A stretch of 64,000 nucleotides of DNA, from the IMG/VR virus record IMGVR_UViG_3300034157_000063; one strand, given 5' to 3'. Both the position numbers and the translations under genes were made by a program. Positions 6,493 to 57,181 of this stretch are shown in pieces. How positions within the stretch are numbered: position 1 is the stretch's first letter; every line of letters begins with the position of its first letter. The stretch is from a virus (lineage: Duplodnaviria > Heunggongvirae > Uroviricota > Caudoviricetes). The notes below the pieces were generated by a model. The model saw nothing but the letters and a program-made list of their open reading frames with translations, searched no databases and was not told the origin of the DNA.

Positions 6493-7716
6493 TTATGAAT
6501 TTTTCATTTGCTGTAGTTTTACGTGTTCAAACCTTAATTCTTTTGGTTCGACATCTAACGATTTAGTGAGCCATTTTTTTAAAAGATTAACAAGACTTTT
6601 ATAAATCAAATTGAATTTGTCAGATGAATAATTGTAATCATGAAGGCTATAAGACCTTATTTCAGTTTCTCTACCAATATTCAAGCTAAAATCACCTACA
6701 CTGATGTTGAAAATGTAGTTGGTGCAAAATACATATTCTTTCGAATCAAACAGAGTCGGTTCTTTTTCAATGGATATTAACTTCTGTATAGAGTAAGGGT
6801 TTTCAATCTGTTCTATAAAATTCATCAGGGATATAATTGAGAGTAAGGAAGACAATTCTTTTTCATGAAAGATTGGCTTCAATACTGTTCTGATTACATC
6901 CATTTTATTGACATCGACAAAGAGTGATACTCTGTCTTTTAAGTTCTCTAACTCAACAATATGGGTTTCTGACTCTTGTTTAATGATCGCTATATTCTTA
7001 TTTTCTAGAAAACTAAGAGACGAATCAGACTCTTCATCTTCATAAATATAATTTTTCAAGATATAGGATAATTTAGAATCATTGATGTTTTTATAAAAGC
7101 TATGATCAGTCCATTTTTTGAAAAAAGCTTTATGATTGATGCGAACATCATAAGATTCAATAGACTCATTCACAACATTGGCAATGGTTGTATTATTTAC
7201 TTTTTTTATGTCTTCATTGAAATAGAGTGATAGCGATTTCTTTAACTGTTCAATGATGACTTTTTGAAAATCATCTACGGTTAATTTTTTTAATGAATAG
7301 GCACTTTCAAAAAATGAGCATTCCTGATATATCTCGAAAGAGTGCTTAGTCACTTGAAATTCAACCAGTTTGCTGCTAAATGTAACATGATTATTAGTGA
7401 CAACAAAATGAAACACTTCATTTTTACCCATTGGAACACAAAAAAGATTATGATGAAATTCAAACATGGAGACAACTTGATTTATTTCATTCTTAGTAAA
7501 GTGAGGCATAAAAAATGACAGTATTATTCTTATATCAACTGCAGCATAATATTCAGTCAACTGGAAGTTCAAATTGTTCTCACTGACAGAAAACGTATTA
7601 AGCTTACCTTTGATATTATTATCTTTTGATTCAACAACACCCATTTTTAAAAGGTATTCTTTCAAGAAAAGGTGATTTCCAAATAATCCCAGTATATTGG
7701 CATTTGTATTTTTCAT
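6493..7716 (-). CDS. Hypothetical protein, paralog of 5230..6477
   Basis: 407 aa ORF; ends HVKLQQMKNS. Confidence 0.8.
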   Translation of the reverse strand: MKNTNANILGLFGNHLFLKEYLLKMGVVESKDNNIKGKLNTFSVSENNLNFQLTEYYAAVDIRIILSFFMPHFTKNEINQVVSMFEFHHNLFCVPMGKNEVFHFVVTNNHVTFSSKLVEFQVTKHSFEIYQECSFFESAYSLKKLTVDDFQKVIIEQLKKSLSLYFNEDIKKVNNTTIANVVNESIESYDVRINHKAFFKKWTDHSFYKNINDSKLSYILKNYIYEDEESDSSLSFLENKNIAIIKQESETHIVELENLKDRVSLFVDVNKMDVIRTVLKPIFHEKELSSLLSIISLMNFIEQIENPYSIQKLISIEKEPTLFDSKEYVFCTNYIFNISVGDFSLNIGRETEIRSYSLHDYNYSSDKFNLIYKSLVNLLKKWLTKSLDVEPKELRFEHVKLQQMKNS

Positions 7717-7839
7717 CTGGTATCCGTTAGTTGTTTATTACTTTATATTACTATTATTTTAAGTAAAAACAATGATGAAACAACATTGATTTTTTGATAT
7801 TTTGTGGTAAATTCCTTTTAACTGTAAAGAGAGGTTGTT

Positions 7840-8283
7840 ATGAGAATTAGTAGTAAATATTACTTTATGCTTTTTTTAGTGTTATTGTGTTATGGGTTTA
7901 ACTATATGTTTTACTCTACCATCAAGACCAATATGGATGGTATAGTCAATAGTTATATTGTTCCACAAGCCAGTCTTGCTAATAAAGAGAAATTAAATAT
8001 GTTGATGGCAAAGCCTTATTATTTCAAGGCTGATATGGAGGCACTTTCCGATCAAGCATTCAAGTCTTATAAGGATTCTCTCTATAAAAAAGAATTATTA
8101 GTTGATAAAATGAAGAATATTCTATTATTAAACATTAAAATTGTGTTAATTGATAATGTTAAGTCATCATTCATCTTTAATTATGTCATCAATATCGGCT
8201 TGTTGTTCAGCTTTTTATTTGCTATATTGTTTAAAGAAGGAACCGTGGAGTTAAAACGAAATGAGCCAGAGATCGATGTTTAA
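7840..8283 (+). CDS. Hypothetical membrane protein
   Basis: N- and C-terminal hydrophobic segments; GAGGT SD. Confidence 0.7.
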   Translation: MRISSKYYFMLFLVLLCYGFNYMFYSTIKTNMDGIVNSYIVPQASLANKEKLNMLMAKPYYFKADMEALSDQAFKSYKDSLYKKELLVDKMKNILLLNIKIVLIDNVKSSFIFNYVINIGLLFSFLFAILFKEGTVELKRNEPEIDV

Positions 8284-15063: not shown

Positions 15064-15423
15064 ATGTTTTCAAAATTAATAGTAGGCGTTTTACTTTCAG
15101 GTCTAGCTTCAATGTCTTTCGCTGAGGAACTTATAGATCCTGTTAAGATAGATGAAAAGTCACCTGATAGATGTTTTTACAGTAGTGATAAATATCAATT
15201 CAATGGTGTTCATATCATGCCAAATGGTGCTACAAGTTATGTTCTTAATAGTTTTGTAGAGTTTTATAGCCCTGATGGTAAAGAATTTCCACCTGATCTT
15301 TATCGTGGCCGTTTAGCCCTATCTGATGAGGAAGGTGATGTGTATGAAATTTGTGTTCGTGGTGGTGAAGAAGCCTTAATTTACAAGCTTGAAAAAATAG
15401 ATTCGCAACGACCAGAAGAATAA
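15064..15423 (+). CDS. Exported protein with signal peptide
   Basis: MFSKLIVGVLLSGLASMSFA-EE signal peptide; AGGAG SD. Confidence 0.7.
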   Translation: MFSKLIVGVLLSGLASMSFAEELIDPVKIDEKSPDRCFYSSDKYQFNGVHIMPNGATSYVLNSFVEFYSPDGKEFPPDLYRGRLALSDEEGDVYEICVRGGEEALIYKLEKIDSQRPEE

Positions 15424-15426
15424 AAT

Positions 15427-15451
15427 AAAAAACCATCATGAGATGGTTTTT
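15427..15451. terminator. Bidirectional terminator; copy 1 of a 21-bp repeat flanking argS
   Basis: AAAAAACCATC-ATGA-GATGGTTTTT between convergent genes. Confidence 0.75.
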
Positions 15452-15474
15452 ATTTGTCCACAATTTCTTATTTC

Positions 15475-17151
15475 TTATTTATTTTCAACCGTCATCTTTG
15501 ATAAACATGGATAGGTTTCAATACCTAAGATATTACAGCCTTTCTCAATGACATCCTTCACTGCCGCGATCAAACATAATTTCTTATACTCTTCTTCATG
15601 TCCCAATATTTTTTCACTTTCGTAATATTTGTGGAATAAAGTACATAAGCTGACTAGTTGAGTGGTTAAATAATGACTTTGATACTCAGTACTCATTTCA
15701 TTGATAATCTCTTGAGTTTTCAAAATATTAAAGAATAAAGCATTTTCCTGATTATTTAAAATCAGATCATCAGTGATGGTCAATTTAGGTTCATTCATAT
15801 TGTATTTCTTAAACAAAATTGAATCAATCCGCACATAAGCATTTTGAAGATAAGGAGCTGAACCACCAGAAAAGTTTAAGACATGTTTCCAGTCAAACAC
15901 ATAATCTTGATGCTTGCTTAATTTTAAATCATGAAATTTAAGACCACCTACAATCGTTTTATTCAACAACTCAGTTTGTGTCTCACCTGAAAGCTTTGTA
16001 AAGTGTGGAGACTTTAATAATTCATTTTTACCTTCCATTAACAAATCATCCAAATACAATGATTTTCCTGTTTTTGTTTTGATAGGTTTGTTATCTTCAC
16101 CTAAGATGGTACCGAAACCCAAATGGATAAGCTTATTTTTATCGGTTGCATAACCTACTTTTTTAGCAATCATGAAGATTGTTTCAAAATGCAGTGACTG
16201 CCGTTTATCAACCACATACACTATTTTATCTGGGTTATGTTGTTCTACCCGCCATTTGATAGCCGCTAAATCATAGAGAGCATACAAAAAGGTGCCATTC
16301 GTTTTTTTGATGACCAGCTTGTTATTTTCAAGTTGAACATACACCGAACCATTCTCATCAACACTGGCAATTTGTTTATTGATTAAGTCCACAACGATTT
16401 CATGACAGAACTGAGCAAAGAAGCTTTCACCTTTGGTATCCGCAATGGTCAATTTGAGCTTAAATTCTTTAATTGTAGATTCTAGGTCAATCAAACTAAT
16501 ATCGACACATTTTTGCCATAATGCTAGCAATTCATCATCAAGTTTATTTTGAAGCTTGTACGCAACATTATCAGATTCAAGTGCAAATGAATTATCATCA
16601 CTTTCTTTGGATAGGTTATAGGCAGTATAGGCGAGCTTATAATACTCAGTGAGCTTTTGATTGTCCAAGTTGTTTGCTAAATCATTCTTCATAATGTAAT
16701 TGAGTAGGAAACCAAACTGATTGCCCCAATCACCAACATGATTATATGAAATAACTTCATCACCCATGTTCTGATGGCTCCGAACAACAAAGTCGCCAAT
16801 AAACATAGACCGTATATGACCGATGTGCATTTTTTTTGCAACGTTAACACCACAGTAATCGACCACCACTGTTTCTTTTGGTTTTGTTTGCACTGTTTGT
16901 GCATTCATTAAATTCATTTTGAAAGACAAAAAAGCCTTACCCGTAATTTCAATGTTTTCGTAATGAGTTGTTTTCAATAAATAAGCAATCAAGCTGGCTG
17001 TGTCAAAGTCGCCTTTTTTATTTAATTGAAAAAGAATAGATGTTTGATAATGAAAATTTTCAAAACTTGAATACGATACATCAACCGTTAACGTGATGTT
17101 TTTTGATGTCAGATAATTTTGGATATCCGATTTAATAATGGACTTGTACAT
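15475..17151 (-). CDS. argS: Arginine--tRNA ligase
   Basis: VVVDY..VNVAKKMHIGHIRS (HIGH), NHVGDWGNQFG, YDLAAI.WR, YVVDKRQSLHF, KTKTG and APYLQNAYVRI anticodon-binding domain. Confidence 0.95.
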   Translation of the reverse strand: MYKSIIKSDIQNYLTSKNITLTVDVSYSSFENFHYQTSILFQLNKKGDFDTASLIAYLLKTTHYENIEITGKAFLSFKMNLMNAQTVQTKPKETVVVDYCGVNVAKKMHIGHIRSMFIGDFVVRSHQNMGDEVISYNHVGDWGNQFGFLLNYIMKNDLANNLDNQKLTEYYKLAYTAYNLSKESDDNSFALESDNVAYKLQNKLDDELLALWQKCVDISLIDLESTIKEFKLKLTIADTKGESFFAQFCHEIVVDLINKQIASVDENGSVYVQLENNKLVIKKTNGTFLYALYDLAAIKWRVEQHNPDKIVYVVDKRQSLHFETIFMIAKKVGYATDKNKLIHLGFGTILGEDNKPIKTKTGKSLYLDDLLMEGKNELLKSPHFTKLSGETQTELLNKTIVGGLKFHDLKLSKHQDYVFDWKHVLNFSGGSAPYLQNAYVRIDSILFKKYNMNEPKLTITDDLILNNQENALFFNILKTQEIINEMSTEYQSHYLTTQLVSLCTLFHKYYESEKILGHEEEYKKLCLIAAVKDVIEKGCNILGIETYPCLSKMTVENK

Positions 17152-17205
17152 ATTGAAGCTCCTTTTAATTATATAAAAAATAGTAATGGTTAATTTTTGA
17201 TTTAA

Positions 17206-17235
17206 TTAAAGTCGTCTCAATAGTTTAGTGTTCAT
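17206..17235 (-). CDS. Putative argS leader peptide MNTKLLRRL (tandem Arg codons AGA CGA)
   Basis: GGAG SD 8 nt upstream of ATG 17235; lies between a TTGACA promoter and argS. Confidence 0.7.
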   Translation of the reverse strand: MNTKLLRRL

Positions 17236-17259
17236 TATTTTTTCTCCGATTAGTGGTCT

Positions 17260-17289
17260 ATATTAACATAAATAACCCAATGATGTCAA
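17260..17289 (-). promoter_or_regulatory. Sigma70-like promoter of the argS leader
   Basis: TTGACA (17289-17284), 18-nt spacer with TG, then TAATAT (17265-17260). Confidence 0.6.
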
Positions 17290-17290
17290 T

Positions 17291-17320
17291 AAAAAAACCA
17301 TCATGAGATGGTCTTTATTT
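17291..17320 (-). terminator. Terminator of 17322..18386; copy 2 of the 21-bp repeat
   Basis: AAAAAAACCATCATGAGATGGTCTTT; gives a U tract on the minus strand. Confidence 0.75.
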
Positions 17321-17321
17321 T

Positions 17322-18386
17322 TTAACTAACTTTCTGTTTTATGCGAGAGGTTGTTTCATTGATAAATTTCTCTTTCATCTCAGCAATATTAGAAGGCTTC
17401 TTTTCCATCATCGTTTGTATTGATTTTAAGTCTTTCACATCAATATTCAAATCTTGTGCAACTTTGTTCATGTGACGTTCCGCATCAAGCTCTAAGGCTC
17501 TTTCATTTCTTCCAGTTTGAGCAAAGCCTGCTTTTTTAATAGCTTGAATACCAATGTAACCCATTGCTGCTACACTTATTGCAATTCCGCCTGTTGCAAT
17601 AACAGCAGAACTTGCAGCAACCAAACCAGCCGCTGCACCAAATGAACCAAGAGCTGCAACTAATCCGCCATATCCCATTTTATTTTCTGCTTTGATTTGA
17701 TTGCTTTGATTTTCAAGACCATATAATTTTCTTTTGTACGTGTCAAAGAAGTTTCCAAGGTTTTGACTCAACTCATCAGCCACTGGTGCTTTAAATAGTT
17801 GATTTTTATTTTTACCTTCTGGAAGTTCAGCTCTTTCTACAATGGATTTTACTATTTCGTGAGCTTTCGTCATGTCTCCTTTTTTTACAGCATTTGTGAG
17901 ACTATGCAAATTCATGTGTTCTGAATATGTTTTGTAATCTGTTTGTTTATGAAATTTATCGCTAAATTGTCTTTCGAATTTACTATCTTCAATTTTCATT
18001 CTGTGTTCTTCAAATATCTTACTGGTAATGTCACCTAATTTACTTTCTTGATATTTTGTATACAACTTGCCTATACCTGCATAAGAAAGTCCAGCCATCA
18101 TACCAGCTCCACCACCTAACATAGCGACACCTGCAACAGTAAAACCACCAATTGCAGCCGTTGTAGCGATTGCTGGTATTAATGCGATACTGGCTATACC
18201 GCCTACAACACCTAATAAACCTATACCCAAACCACCCATTGTACCTAATTTTATGTGGCCTTCTGCATTTTTTACCTTAGTCGTAACTTCATCTTTTAAT
18301 CCGACTGTGTGTGAGAAACCATTAACGATATTCATTAATTTTTCTTCTAATTGATCGGCGGTCTTTGCTTTAAATAAGTTCATCAT
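17322..18386 (-). CDS. Gly/Ala-rich membrane-inserting protein with tandem domain duplication and basic tail
   Basis: Two LFKA..AD.L...L.N units, each followed by a Gly-rich hydrophobic hairpin; ends SRIKQKVS. Confidence 0.7.
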   Translation of the reverse strand: MMNLFKAKTADQLEEKLMNIVNGFSHTVGLKDEVTTKVKNAEGHIKLGTMGGLGIGLLGVVGGIASIALIPAIATTAAIGGFTVAGVAMLGGGAGMMAGLSYAGIGKLYTKYQESKLGDITSKIFEEHRMKIEDSKFERQFSDKFHKQTDYKTYSEHMNLHSLTNAVKKGDMTKAHEIVKSIVERAELPEGKNKNQLFKAPVADELSQNLGNFFDTYKRKLYGLENQSNQIKAENKMGYGGLVAALGSFGAAAGLVAASSAVIATGGIAISVAAMGYIGIQAIKKAGFAQTGRNERALELDAERHMNKVAQDLNIDVKDLKSIQTMMEKKPSNIAEMKEKFINETTSRIKQKVS

Positions 18387-34057: not shown

Positions 34058-34185
34058 AAAGGACAAACACATGAAACATATTAATTTTTCAAACATTGTT
34101 GGTGGTGCCCGTCAAACTTAAATGTTTTGGCGTATACCTGTTTGTCCTTTGACAATGACACGAACCGCCTAACGGCGGTTTTTTT
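34058..34185 (+). promoter_or_regulatory. Ribosome-mediated transcription attenuator (Gly)
   Basis: 1:2 hairpin 34110-34132; alternative 2:3 pairing of GGCG 34129-32 with CGCC 34166-69; 3:4 terminator AACCGCC-TAAC-GGCGGTT-TTTTT at 34163-34185; 34139-34150 is a perfect 12-nt complement of the leader SD region 34058-34069. Confidence 0.78.
34071..34121 (+). CDS. Glycine leader peptide MKHINFSNIVGGARQT
   Basis: AAGGA SD; tandem GGT GGT codons; directly upstream of a terminator and the GlyRS-like gene. Confidence 0.8.
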   Translation: MKHINFSNIVGGARQT

Positions 34186-41205: not shown

Positions 41206-41259
41206 ATGTTATTTTTATTCGCTAAGTTTTATGGAGGTAATTTTCGATGTTTTAACTAA
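41206..41259 (+). CDS. Putative leader peptide MLFLFAKFYGGNFRCFN
   Basis: GAGGT SD; follows a TTGACA..TAAAAT promoter; stops 14 nt before 41274. Confidence 0.5.
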   Translation: MLFLFAKFYGGNFRCFN

Positions 41260-41273
41260 TATCGGAGGTTACT

Positions 41274-41858
41274 ATGTTTTACACTTACAAGATTTATGGT
41301 TTCGATGGTAAAATTTACTATGAAGAATCAAAGAAAAGTTTGTTCGAAGTCATTGATGACTTTGGTTTAAGACGATTTTTACATCGTTTTTGCAATACGT
41401 TTGAAATTGGCGAAGGCACTACTCTTCATTCTGAGAAAAGGGTTCAGGTTGGTGGTTGGTTCGATGAGAATGATGGTCATAAGTTTTACCCACTCACTCA
41501 AAGCGAAACAGTTTGCCGCACAGGTGATTTCAGAATAGAAACGTTTGCAGGTGCAACTGTTGATATTTATGAGTTGTCTTATGAGTATCGCCAGTCAAGA
41601 GATTTGTTGAAAGCTGCAAAGCCCGAACGTGTTCGCAATTCTTGGGCAAAACAAAAAGATAGACCCCTAGTTGTTAAGTATCCTGCTGGTGTCCGTCAGG
41701 AGCATGTTCAAAACGTTTTTGATAAAATGGATGGTTATGTAAAACTTAGACAAAGTAGAGTGAATGCTGTTAAACATGAATACTATTTCGAAAGTTATAG
41801 CATAAAAGGCAAGCCGAACTCTTGGAAAAACAGCAAAAAATCAAAGCAGTGGATGTGA
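41274..41858 (+). CDS. Basic hypothetical protein ending KPNSWKNSKKSKQWM; homolog of 25185..25796
   Basis: GGAGGT SD; shared GDF.. segment and WK...Q[WY] tail. Confidence 0.75.
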   Translation: MFYTYKIYGFDGKIYYEESKKSLFEVIDDFGLRRFLHRFCNTFEIGEGTTLHSEKRVQVGGWFDENDGHKFYPLTQSETVCRTGDFRIETFAGATVDIYELSYEYRQSRDLLKAAKPERVRNSWAKQKDRPLVVKYPAGVRQEHVQNVFDKMDGYVKLRQSRVNAVKHEYYFESYSIKGKPNSWKNSKKSKQWM

Positions 41859-47850: not shown

Positions 47851-49224
47851 GTGAATTTAAAAATGCTCAACACCTTAAGTGGACAAAAAGAAACCTTCAG
47901 ACCCATTAAATCTGGTGAAGTGAGTATTTATGTCTGTGGTGTTACTTTGTATGATGATATTCATATCGGGCATCTTAAAAGTATTATTTCATTTGAAGTG
48001 ATGAGAAATTACTTCTTGGCAAAAGGCCAGCAAGTTACGCTTGTGCGTAATATCACGGATGTTGATGATAAGATTATTATGAAGGCTGAACAATTAGGCG
48101 TTGACCCACTGGATTTGGTGAATAGCTATATTGATAAGTTCCATGCCGTTTTAGAACAAATGCAAATTCCTATGCCGGATGTTGAACCGCGTGTGACTCA
48201 ATACCTACCAGAAATTTCAGATTACATCGAAGATCTCATTGAAAATGGTACCGCTTATGTGACTGATGATGGTGTTTACTTCGACACTCAACAAAATAAA
48301 CAAGAACGTTATCCGCTCTCGAAAAAGATTGTGCAGGATTTGGATGACAATTCCAGACTGGATGATAAAGCATATAACAAGAAACATAAGGCAGACTTTG
48401 CCTTATGGAAGCTTGATGACAAGTATGGATATCACAGCAATGTGTTTAGTAAGCAGGGCCGTCCCGGTTGGCATATTGAATGTTCTGTTATGCATCATCA
48501 TACATTAGGTCAACATTTTGATATTCATGGGGGTGGTCGTGATCTTATTTTCCCACATCATGAAAATGAAATTTTGCAGAGTGTGGCTCACAATGGTGTC
48601 AATCCTGCGAATTACTGGCTGCATAATGGAATGATGACCAGTGATGGTAAAAAGCTCTCAAAATCGCTAGGAAACTCTATCTATGTAAAAGACATGTTAG
48701 ACAGCTACTCAGGTGAAGCGTTGAAACTGTTCTTGAACAAAGGGCAATACAACCAATCACAAGAATTTAAAGAAGATGAATTACAAGACGCACAAAACCA
48801 CTGGGATAACTTTGTTCGTGATGTTCCAGAGTATCTGTTTGATAATTTAGATGATAATGTTTATTTTGAACAAGCACTCAATGCTTTGGATGATGATTTT
48901 AATACACCACAAGTCATTATTGTGCTTCATGAAGGCTTGAAGAACTTGCGTAGGTCTAAATCCTTGAATGTAGCCGAAGATGTCTTGAAAGTATTCAAAT
49001 TGTTAGCGGTTGTCCCATCGGATGCTACATTAGAAACGGTTTATGAGAAATGGATGACGGAAGCAGCAAAGCCATCTGCAGAGATAGTAGAGCTTGTTCA
49101 TAAACGTCAACAGGCTAAATTAGATAAAAACTATACGTTAGCTGATCAGTATCGCCAACAGGTTCAATCACAAGGTTGGCAAATACTTGATAAAGGTGAT
49201 ACCTTTGAGTTGCGAAAGATTTAA
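47851..49224 (+). CDS. cysS: Cysteine--tRNA ligase
   Basis: YVCGVT.YD..HIGH, RNITDVDDKII, DFALWK, GRPGWHIECS, DIHGGG.DL.FPHHENE, KLSKSLGN and DDDFNTP; GTG start with AAGGAG SD. Confidence 0.96.
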   Translation: MNLKMLNTLSGQKETFRPIKSGEVSIYVCGVTLYDDIHIGHLKSIISFEVMRNYFLAKGQQVTLVRNITDVDDKIIMKAEQLGVDPLDLVNSYIDKFHAVLEQMQIPMPDVEPRVTQYLPEISDYIEDLIENGTAYVTDDGVYFDTQQNKQERYPLSKKIVQDLDDNSRLDDKAYNKKHKADFALWKLDDKYGYHSNVFSKQGRPGWHIECSVMHHHTLGQHFDIHGGGRDLIFPHHENEILQSVAHNGVNPANYWLHNGMMTSDGKKLSKSLGNSIYVKDMLDSYSGEALKLFLNKGQYNQSQEFKEDELQDAQNHWDNFVRDVPEYLFDNLDDNVYFEQALNALDDDFNTPQVIIVLHEGLKNLRRSKSLNVAEDVLKVFKLLAVVPSDATLETVYEKWMTEAAKPSAEIVELVHKRQQAKLDKNYTLADQYRQQVQSQGWQILDKGDTFELRKI

Positions 49225-54772: not shown

Positions 54773-56266
54773 ATGTCTAAAATAATCATAGTTCATTCAT
54801 TATCCGAATCAAAACTCAGAAAAGCCGTTGAACTTGGTGGAATGCCTCTACCCAGCATCGCGGCTATGAAACCTGATAATGAGTTTACCCGTTTTGGTAA
54901 CATCACCTTCATTCTAAAACCAGAATCTGTTAATCCAAAAGATAAGAAAAATCTATTTTTTGATCGTGATATATTTTCTCAGAGAATTCCAGAACTCTAT
55001 TACGATATAGACAAGAAAGCTCTTAGCAGTCTTCATAAACAATTAGACACTATGGTCGATAACAATAAAAGTCTTGAACCTTTATTTAATTTGTATGATT
55101 TGGATTCATTAAAAAGAAAATCATCTGATTATATTGAAGACCGTTTGAAATCAAGTCCTCTTGTTCGTTTGATGTTTATACAAAAAATGAATCCTTCTTA
55201 TGAACTTCCTACTAAGGTTGATAAATTGCAATCTGATCTTTCATCTGATCTTATTTTTCAAGACTATATGAAAAAAAGAATACACACACTTCAACATGAT
55301 GATGACTTCAAGTCAGCCCTACATGCTGTCTTAGAAAGAAGACATGCTTACTACAAAGACACTATTGGTTTGACAATTGCTGATGATATTATGGCTGATT
55401 ATAAGAAAGCTATCTTTAATCAACATGGCGATATTAATAGTTATTCAAGTGATCTTGAAAAAATTGTGAATGATGTTAAGCGTTATTCTGGTGTCTCTAA
55501 AATATTAGATATTGAGAAGGCTAGGGATGAATTAAGCAAGTTTGCTGATAGTCATACTGCTGATTACAGTGAATTCTTTTCTGACCTTACGCAAGATATC
55601 TTTGTTAAGCCGCATTTGAGAAATGGCACCCGAAAAGTTGAATATAACTTAGATACGATTTCTAAGTATATGTTAAGACAGCAAGTAACCGGAGCAGAAG
55701 ATGTTAATGATACCAGTATTGGTAAAATATCTTCCAGTTACTCCACACAATTTACTTCTTATGATGACATGATTAGCTATGTTGATAAATTAGACACAAT
55801 GGAAGACCGTCACAATCAAACAGATGCTCTTAATAAGAGAATTTTCGATTTGGCTGAAAAAATACAGCCACACTCCCCTTATTCAAGATTTTTTGATGTT
55901 CAAGAATATTTATCTTTGGCATTAACACGAGTCTCAACTTTAGAACAGTTTTCTACAAAATTATCTAAACAAGGTTTTGATGTTACTGCTATACCACAAG
56001 ATGTCATTAATGAAGGTTTTGACATCTGTCATGGGATTAAAAATCTAAGCAGTCATTATTTTGAAGGAAAGCCACAAAAAGTTATCTATTTTGATGACTT
56101 CCAAGCGGTAGCACTACCAAAGAATACTGCACCAGACATTATCAAAGCTCTTGATGGTAAAGTGAATATCCACTTCTATGAAACACAAGAAGAAAAGAAA
56201 GCAATATTCTCAAAATACTCATTTGATTCAGCACCTAAAAAACTCAATAAGTTAAAAAACTTTTGA
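54773..56266 (+). CDS. Protein resembling a domain of large polyvalent proteins of phages/conjugative elements; basic tail
   Basis: VHSLSESKLRKAVELGGMPLPSIA...FGNI and YFEGKPQ...F.AVALP motifs (recalled pattern, not searched); ends KKLNKLKNF. Confidence 0.5.
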   Translation: MSKIIIVHSLSESKLRKAVELGGMPLPSIAAMKPDNEFTRFGNITFILKPESVNPKDKKNLFFDRDIFSQRIPELYYDIDKKALSSLHKQLDTMVDNNKSLEPLFNLYDLDSLKRKSSDYIEDRLKSSPLVRLMFIQKMNPSYELPTKVDKLQSDLSSDLIFQDYMKKRIHTLQHDDDFKSALHAVLERRHAYYKDTIGLTIADDIMADYKKAIFNQHGDINSYSSDLEKIVNDVKRYSGVSKILDIEKARDELSKFADSHTADYSEFFSDLTQDIFVKPHLRNGTRKVEYNLDTISKYMLRQQVTGAEDVNDTSIGKISSSYSTQFTSYDDMISYVDKLDTMEDRHNQTDALNKRIFDLAEKIQPHSPYSRFFDVQEYLSLALTRVSTLEQFSTKLSKQGFDVTAIPQDVINEGFDICHGIKNLSSHYFEGKPQKVIYFDDFQAVALPKNTAPDIIKALDGKVNIHFYETQEEKKAIFSKYSFDSAPKKLNKLKNF

Positions 56267-57105: not shown

Positions 57106-57181
57106 GCTTTGGTAGCTCAGCGGTAAGAGCAGCGGTCCCTAAAACCGATGGTCACGGGTTCGAATCCCGTCCTTAGCACCA
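57106..57181 (+). tRNA. Atypical tRNA with CUA anticodon (amber-suppressor-like)
   Basis: D and T arms canonical; anticodon arm CGGT-CCCTAAA-ACCG gives C33 and CUA at 34-36; acceptor GCTTTGG/CCTTAGC has two U-U mismatches; CCA. Confidence 0.75.

Follow-up and report, generated by a model that had tools for sequence, protein, structure and literature searches.

Sensing of amino-acid supply through a leader peptide follows textbook logic. In E. coli, trpL, hisL, and pheM-pheST are classical transcription attenuators, the last of which precedes a synthetase operon. In T-box systems, a leader RNA of about 200 nt binds the tRNA directly. A different arrangement is found in ermC, cat-86, and cmlA, where a helix carries the stall site in its 5' arm and the downstream Shine-Dalgarno (SD) sequence and start codon in its 3' arm, and the trigger is an antibiotic together with the nascent peptide. 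For arginine, the nearest published case is the Salmonella speF leader, in which the two consecutive Arg codons of orf34 (speFL) report arginine via ribosome pausing; a structure there hides the ribosome-binding site of the downstream gene, and translating orf34 helps to open it, while control is exerted via Rho termination and decay by RNase G, the Arg codons governing mRNA decay and the access of Rho (PMC6386406). Our literature search found no published leader peptide or attenuator before argS.

Here, we describe a candidate leader of this kind ahead of the argS gene in the window, i.e., the whole 64,000-nt stretch of DNA that was analysed. Like trpL, hisL, and pheM, this leader has a short, SD-preceded ORF with tandem cognate codons ahead of the gene, and sensing by stalling is proposed for it; however, it has neither terminator nor antiterminator, it is only 9 codons long, and the amino acid sensed would be arginine. 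The full form, with terminator and antiterminator, is found in three related loci (L002, L003, and L023); judged by these features, the window copy falls outside the class of transcriptional attenuators, to which the three relatives would belong. The likeness to ermC, cat-86, and cmlA lies in the predicted fold, which places the stall site in the 5' arm and the downstream SD and start codon in the 3' arm. The window leader differs from these systems in its proposed trigger, which is a lack of charged tRNA-Arg, and in its weaker, AU-rich helix, and it has no sequence relationship to them. With the speF leader it shares an Arg-Arg upstream ORF (uORF), but there a long leader precedes an ornithine decarboxylase gene, whereas here a minimal leader precedes the cognate synthetase gene. 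Finally, uncharged cognate tRNA as the signal and a synthetase gene as the target recall the T-box. This candidate was nevertheless rejected: no T-box match was obtained with Rfam at the gathering threshold in the whole window and none at E values up to 10 in the leader region (17050-17400), where Rfam families of any kind, T-box or other, gave zero matches.

Layout of the leader and of argS

The leader and argS are both encoded on the minus strand. The first-pass annotation had described a TTGACA promoter, a GGAG sequence, the uORF MNTKLLRRL* (17235-17206) with its AGA-CGA codons, and a distance of 54 nt to argS, all of which were confirmed. The features of the locus are the following:

17290-17320, minus strand: intrinsic terminator of the upstream gene, ending the 354-aa gene (hairpin 17312-17297 followed by a T-run)
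17260-17289, minus strand: sigma-70-type promoter (TTGACA 17289-17284, 18-nt spacer, extended -10 TG-T-TAATAT 17268-17260)
17244-17247, minus strand: SD sequence GGAG of the uORF, 8 nt ahead of the ATG at 17235
17206-17235, minus strand: leader uORF MNTKLLRRL* (ATG AAC ACT AAA CTA TTG AGA CGA CTT TAA; 9 codons and TAA)
17212-17217, minus strand: tandem Arg codons, the proposed stall site (AGA 17217-17215, CGA 17214-17212)
17203-17224, minus strand: predicted masking helix, 5' strand (uORF codons 4-9, the stop codon, and a few bases past it)
17152-17205, minus strand: spacer between the uORF and argS (54 nt)
17176-17198, minus strand: predicted apical leader hairpin, an AU-only stem (A-run 17198-17193, U-run 17181-17176)
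17148-17171, minus strand: predicted masking helix, 3' strand (argS translation initiation region, SD and AUG)
17159-17165, minus strand: SD sequence AAAGGAG of argS (AUG at 17151-17149)
15475-17151, minus strand: argS (558 aa, class I arginyl-tRNA synthetase by Pfam)
15427-15455, minus strand: terminator 3' of argS, the reference copy of a 29-nt repeat that is also found 3' of argS in the related locus L001
56433-56509, plus strand: the element's own tRNA-Arg(UCU), which reads the leader codon AGA

Transcription would start at about 17254, approximately 19 nt 5' of the uORF ATG. The terminator of the upstream gene (17292-17320) is 97% identical to the 29-nt repeat 3' of argS (15427-15455), and the 16-nt hairpin core is identical in both. 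Of the bases in the 54-nt spacer, 6 are C and 3 are G, and C-rich tracts are lacking. A terminator scan found no terminator-like site in 17205-17152, where the sole hairpin is the AU-only stem, and an intrinsic terminator in the leader of the window was thus rejected, in agreement with what had been noted from the sequence at first sight. A mutually exclusive antiterminator is likewise absent. The U-run at 17181-17176 has an alternative partner in the A-rich start of the argS SD. No further copy of the leader was found in the window or in any fetched locus.

The product of argS matched the Pfam families tRNA-synt_1d (4.5e-73) and DALR_1 (2.5e-21) and contained a HIGH motif; the 558-aa protein is, therefore, a predicted class I arginyl-tRNA synthetase (ArgRS). 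It contains only 5 Arg in 558 codons, compared to 3.2% in the other 73 ORFs of the window (binomial P ~3e-4), and these five residues (R114, R124, R301, R317, and R441) are all invariant. Moreover, all five are encoded by CGG, which is the rarest Arg codon in the window (22 out of 586 elsewhere; P ~7e-8) and is absent from the leader of the window. The same bias was observed in relatives, with five Arg, all CGG, in L001, CGT for 5 out of 5 in L002 and L003, and four CGT and one CGG in L023; in about 100 clusters of ArgRS homologues, down to ~40% identity, only 4-6 Arg were present in each. An argS gene so poor in Arg, with a single type of Arg codon, means that its message needs very little Arg-tRNA and a codon unused by the leader, and it would fit the logic of sensing and of a gene induced by starvation. 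We do not present CGG as a starvation-robust codon, because a whole-cell model of E. coli finds the opposite, with CGG suffering most among the Arg codons when ArgRS activity is low (PMC10325894).

Conservation of the leader in related loci

Homologues of the ArgRS were found in metagenomes at graded identities, namely 97% for P0001, 87% for P0002, and 56-74% for P0003-P0011. The phage collection gave no DNA match to the window and a best protein match of ~34% identity, and the best match in the plasmid collection was 35% identical. In IMG/VR, the single ArgRS protein had no match, the alignment-based search returned only L023 and L104, and an exact 20-mer of the leader was not found. The best ArgRS among GTDB species genomes was 36% identical, in a scan by exact peptide patterns that closer ones could escape. 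The loci designated by L numbers were gathered by pattern scans, and the sequence features, conservation, complementarity, and codon bias reported for them and for the window were observed directly.

Small ORFs with an SD and an ATG are infrequent in the intergenic DNA of the window (8 per 6,993 nt, two strands), and two of these eight are the Arg leader and a Gly leader. A random 9-codon ORF of this base composition would contain an Arg-Arg pair in ~2.4% of cases, and the joint chance of an SD-preceded, ATG-initiated small ORF with Arg-Arg at this one site was estimated at ~0.002. Upstream of ordinary bacterial argS genes (78 loci from a GTDB scan; 250 nt each), any small ORF with SD and ATG was present at 7 loci and an Arg-Arg pair at 1. 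On sequence grounds, the leader is not a chance ORF, since it is conserved in relatives. In a Kiritimatiellia MAG with 61% GC (L100), a uORF of 17 codons with its own SD and six Arg arranged as three Arg-Arg pairs lies ~126 nt upstream of an ordinary argS; this uORF may be an independent Arg leader.

The first-pass annotation had called for conservation of an Arg-containing uORF before argS in related elements, and such a uORF was present in L001, L002, L003, and L023, whereas no leader was found ahead of argS in L010 and L016. In L010, a Met-Leu-Arg-stop mini-ORF, possibly due to chance, overlaps the argS SD. Overall, two types of leader were observed: a short type, compared here in two sequences only (the window and L001), and a long type (L002, L003, and L023).

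L001, located on a 1.86-Mb metagenome contig, is colinear with the window across 13.6 kb. Its ArgRS is 75% identical to that of the window, and at four-fold degenerate sites identity drops to 44%, close to saturation. The leader peptide of L001 is MNTQLLRRL*, in which the ATG, the frame, and AGA-CGA are all retained; the two differences within the uORF are a synonymous change (ACT to ACA) and the Lys-to-Gln change, with no indel and no stop. Upstream, L001 has kept both the -35 hexamer and the extended -10, the 12-nt block around GGAG is identical, and the distance from SD to ATG is fixed at 8 nt, although the sequence of this spacer has diverged. A run of 25 identical nucleotides (17225-17201) covers the Leu-Leu-Arg-Arg-Leu-stop codons; by length it ranks 11th among all identical runs of the 13.6-kb colinear region, and few runs outside long ORFs are as long. 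The spacer between uORF and argS (52-54 nt) has diverged in its central part and in the loop sequence. The conserved blocks correspond to both strands of the helix predicted between the uORF and the argS start region, and the spacer between them diverges.

Other differences between the two loci concern the surroundings of this unit. In the window, near-identical copies of the 29-nt terminator flank the promoter, leader, and argS on both sides, whereas in L001 only the downstream terminator is of this type; the upstream one differs, and ~70 extra nt precede the promoter, which points to recombination or conversion having occurred at the border of the unit. Beside argS, both loci contain a convergent gene for a 119-aa protein with a signal-peptide-like N-terminus (15064-15423, plus strand, in the window; 7700-8059, minus strand, in L001) and no Pfam match. 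This protein is 92% identical between the two, and its gene contains stretches of up to 62 nt without any difference; argS (75%) and the upstream 354-aa gene (53%) are far less conserved.

The long-type leaders belong to ArgRS genes whose products are 53-54% identical to that of the window, one of them (L023) from an IMG/VR record. These leaders comprise 32-36 codons, with MKN at the start and a row of three Arg codons further on (CGC AGG AGA or CGC AGG CGA), and a GC-rich hairpin followed by a T-run lies between each of them and argS. When the nascent transcript was folded to the terminator loop with a ribosome footprint imposed, the 5' arm of the terminator paired with an upstream G-rich segment with a probability of 0.67-0.70 for a ribosome at the Arg codons, versus 0.02-0.25 for a ribosome at the leader stop codon. 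Moreover, a compensatory change was seen by eye in the antiterminator (GGGG/CCCC in L002 and L003, GGAG/CUCC in L023). According to this modelling, the leaders of L002, L003, and L023 are classical attenuators. The Gly-Gly leader that had been mentioned ahead of the GlyRS-like gene of the window also exists (34071-34121, plus strand) and has a terminator. This Gly leader and the Arg leader of L023 (5797-5904) both start with MK and carry F-x-N-I-V before the regulatory codons, i.e., the peptides resemble each other as MK..F.NIV; at the nucleotide level, a DNA alignment showed no clear homology.

Predicted fold and proposed control of argS

Both for the window and for L001, the minimum free energy (MFE) fold joins the 3' half of the uORF (17224-17203) to the argS initiation region (17171-17148), including most of the SD and AUG. 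The z-scores of these folds were -2.8 and -4.6, respectively. For the helix alone, a duplex energy of -11.7 kcal/mol was computed for the window, which lies in the top 1.8% of random same-strand 26-mers, and one of -15.8 kcal/mol for L001 (top 0.08% of the background); taken alone, the helix predicted for the window is, thus, of modest significance. The argS start region ranked 8th among 69 genes for pairing. The masking helix is AU-rich and weak and derives partly from two copies of a self-complementary AT-rich motif; in the two short-type sequences it shows no compensatory double change, its 5' strand being invariant.

In the window, imposing a ribosome footprint over the Arg codons raised the mean unpaired probability of the start region from 0.31 to 0.57. 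The corresponding values for L001 were 0.29 without and 0.39-0.49 with the footprint; there, a local hairpin between the U-run and the SD leaves GGAG largely paired despite the imposed ribosome. Placed at the stop codon, the ribosome gave a computed unmasking equal to that obtained at the Arg codons. Any effect of stalling would, therefore, come from kinetics, in that the ribosome stays longer on the uORF, and as stalled ribosomes and those at the stop codon are not separated by the model, only a small dynamic range is predicted.

Overall, we lean towards the reading that the leader senses arginyl-tRNA and exerts a ribosome-mediated control of argS translation initiation by unmasking of the start site. 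As long as the leader RNA is free, the argS SD and AUG would be masked by pairing with the 3' half of the uORF, and a ribosome translating the uORF would melt this helix. With plentiful charged tRNA-Arg, the ribosome would terminate promptly, the helix would re-form, and argS initiation would be low. If the Arg-tRNA reading AGA or CGA were scarce, the ribosome would dwell on the 5' strand, the argS start would stay open, and ArgRS would increase; the argS message, with five Arg codons that are all CGG and call for a different isoacceptor, would be readable under the shortage. Here, we infer translation of the uORF, stalling, and the direction and size of the control.

The first-pass annotation had proposed sensing of Arg-tRNA charging through stalling at the Arg doublet, a view that gained support in silico from the conservation in L001, the Arg-Arg-Arg attenuators of distant relatives, the rarity of such uORFs elsewhere, and the Arg-poor argS. 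It had named Rho-dependent, translational, or degenerate control as the possible output; the complementarity of the 3' half of the uORF to the argS SD and AUG, in both the window and L001, favours the translational one, and Rho is kept as a rival below.

Three other readings were weighed. One is that the uORF is translated but senses no arginine, acting as a constitutive opener of the argS start or persisting as a relic of an Arg-Arg-Arg attenuator that lost its terminator. The short form indeed has neither the terminator nor the antiterminator of L002, L003, and L023, L010 and L016 are entirely without a leader, and the equal unmasking by a ribosome at the stop codon and at the Arg codons in the fold model speaks for this reading as well. 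The Arg codons are nevertheless kept as Arg-Arg in both short-type loci and as Arg-Arg-Arg in 3 out of 3 long-type loci, with differing codons. Moreover, the 25-nt identical run would not be expected of a relic where four-fold degenerate sites are 44% identical, and an argS purged of Arg and using a single Arg codon suits a gene induced by starvation. We regard this reading as unlikely.

Alternatively, arginine could be sensed as proposed, with protection from Rho-dependent termination or RNase attack as the output, as in orf34/speF. AT-rich foreign DNA is a typical target of Rho, the masking helix is weak, and a terminator is missing from the stretch between uORF and argS. The speF precedent, in which two consecutive Arg codons act on mRNA decay and Rho access (PMC6386406), points in the same direction. 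However, the base content of the 54-nt spacer (6 C, 3 G, no C-rich tract) would make a poor rut site, and the conserved blocks match exactly the strands of the helix, whereas the spacer between them diverges. We consider this output quite unlikely.

Lastly, the conserved stretch could be an untranslated RNA or DNA element, such as a protein or sRNA binding site, in which the frame is incidental: codons 5-9 are identical including their synonymous sites, as constraint at the nucleotide level predicts, and this perfect identity, seen in two short-type sequences only, is equally compatible with peptide coding, but we find such an element very improbable given the GGAG-ATG distance fixed at 8 nt despite a diverging spacer sequence, in-frame changes limited to one synonymous and one Lys-to-Gln substitution with no indel or stop, the translatable Arg-Arg-Arg frame kept by distant relatives in different nucleotides, the lack of an Rfam match, and the fact that no ARG-box-like palindrome kept in both the window and L001 was seen by eye.

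The element and the meaning of the leader

The window carries the ArgRS, a CysRS, a GlyRS-like core, seven tRNAs, and a PBECR5 nuclease. Among the other 49 ORFs of the window that were tested against Pfam, a count that leaves out the synthetases, one nuclease, and a few weak matches, only six families matched, including Thg1 and NADAR. This content marks the window as a probable giant element, orphan-rich and centred on tRNA, and not as ordinary chromosome. As annotated at first, it includes its own tRNA-Arg(UCU) for the leader codon AGA.

The CysRS gene (47851-49224, plus strand; Pfam E 1e-99) contains only 2 Cys codons and is preceded by a plain terminator, a promoter, and an SD, with no leader ORF; a cognate leader is, thus, not universal among the synthetases of the element. 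The seven tRNAs form a cluster in which they are separated by small ORFs. One of them (57106-57181, plus strand), called Pyl by ARAGORN, has the anticodon CTA, would read the amber codon TAG, and could be a suppressor tRNA. Directly upstream of the cluster, which starts with tRNA-Arg(UCU), lies a gene for a 497-aa protein (54773-56266, plus strand) with an N-terminal PBECR5 domain (barnase/EndoU/colicin E5-D/RelE-like nuclease; E 5e-20), and a link of this protein to tRNA cleavage is possible. Two further small ORFs of the window are preceded by an SD. The first (41206-41259, plus strand) is a 17-codon uORF with Phe at 5 out of 17 codons, followed after 14 nt by an orphan gene for 194 aa (41274-41858); among the 69 genes tested, this gene has the start region with the most base pairing, and its protein contains 13 Phe and is not Phe-poor. 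The second (9487-9476, minus strand) is a Met-Arg-Arg-stop mini-ORF located 38 nt upstream of the gene for a 143-aa putative membrane protein (9438-9007).

Returning to arginyl-tRNA sensing with unmasking of the argS start, we put forward only tentatively, as possible but doubtful, the wider joint reading of a codon-partitioned emergency circuit, a rewiring of sensor and output within the ArgRS clade, and a general strategy of cognate leaders. If this were true, the sensor would sample the isoacceptors on which the element relies, AGA (read by its own tRNA-Arg(UCU)) and CGA, and the message of the product would have been purged to five indispensable Arg and recoded to one codon unused by the sensor, CGG here and CGT in relatives. 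A giant extrachromosomal element could then restart arginylation upon a collapse of tRNA-Arg charging, as the enzyme would be built for synthesis while charged tRNA-Arg is lacking. One ArgRS clade would have been rewired between transcriptional control (Arg-Arg-Arg and a terminator) and translational control (Arg-Arg and SD masking). If the Gly leader and the GlyRS-like gene, which is poor in Gly, are added, a 'cognate-free synthetase behind a cognate leader' would be a general strategy.

To our knowledge, amino-acid starvation acting by unmasking of a ribosome-binding site instead of by antitermination is rare. The presence of both designs within one ArgRS clade would offer a natural series for a change in the output step of an attenuator, and the pairing of a sensor with an Arg-poor synthetase would bear on why giant, orphan-rich elements own synthetases and tRNAs.
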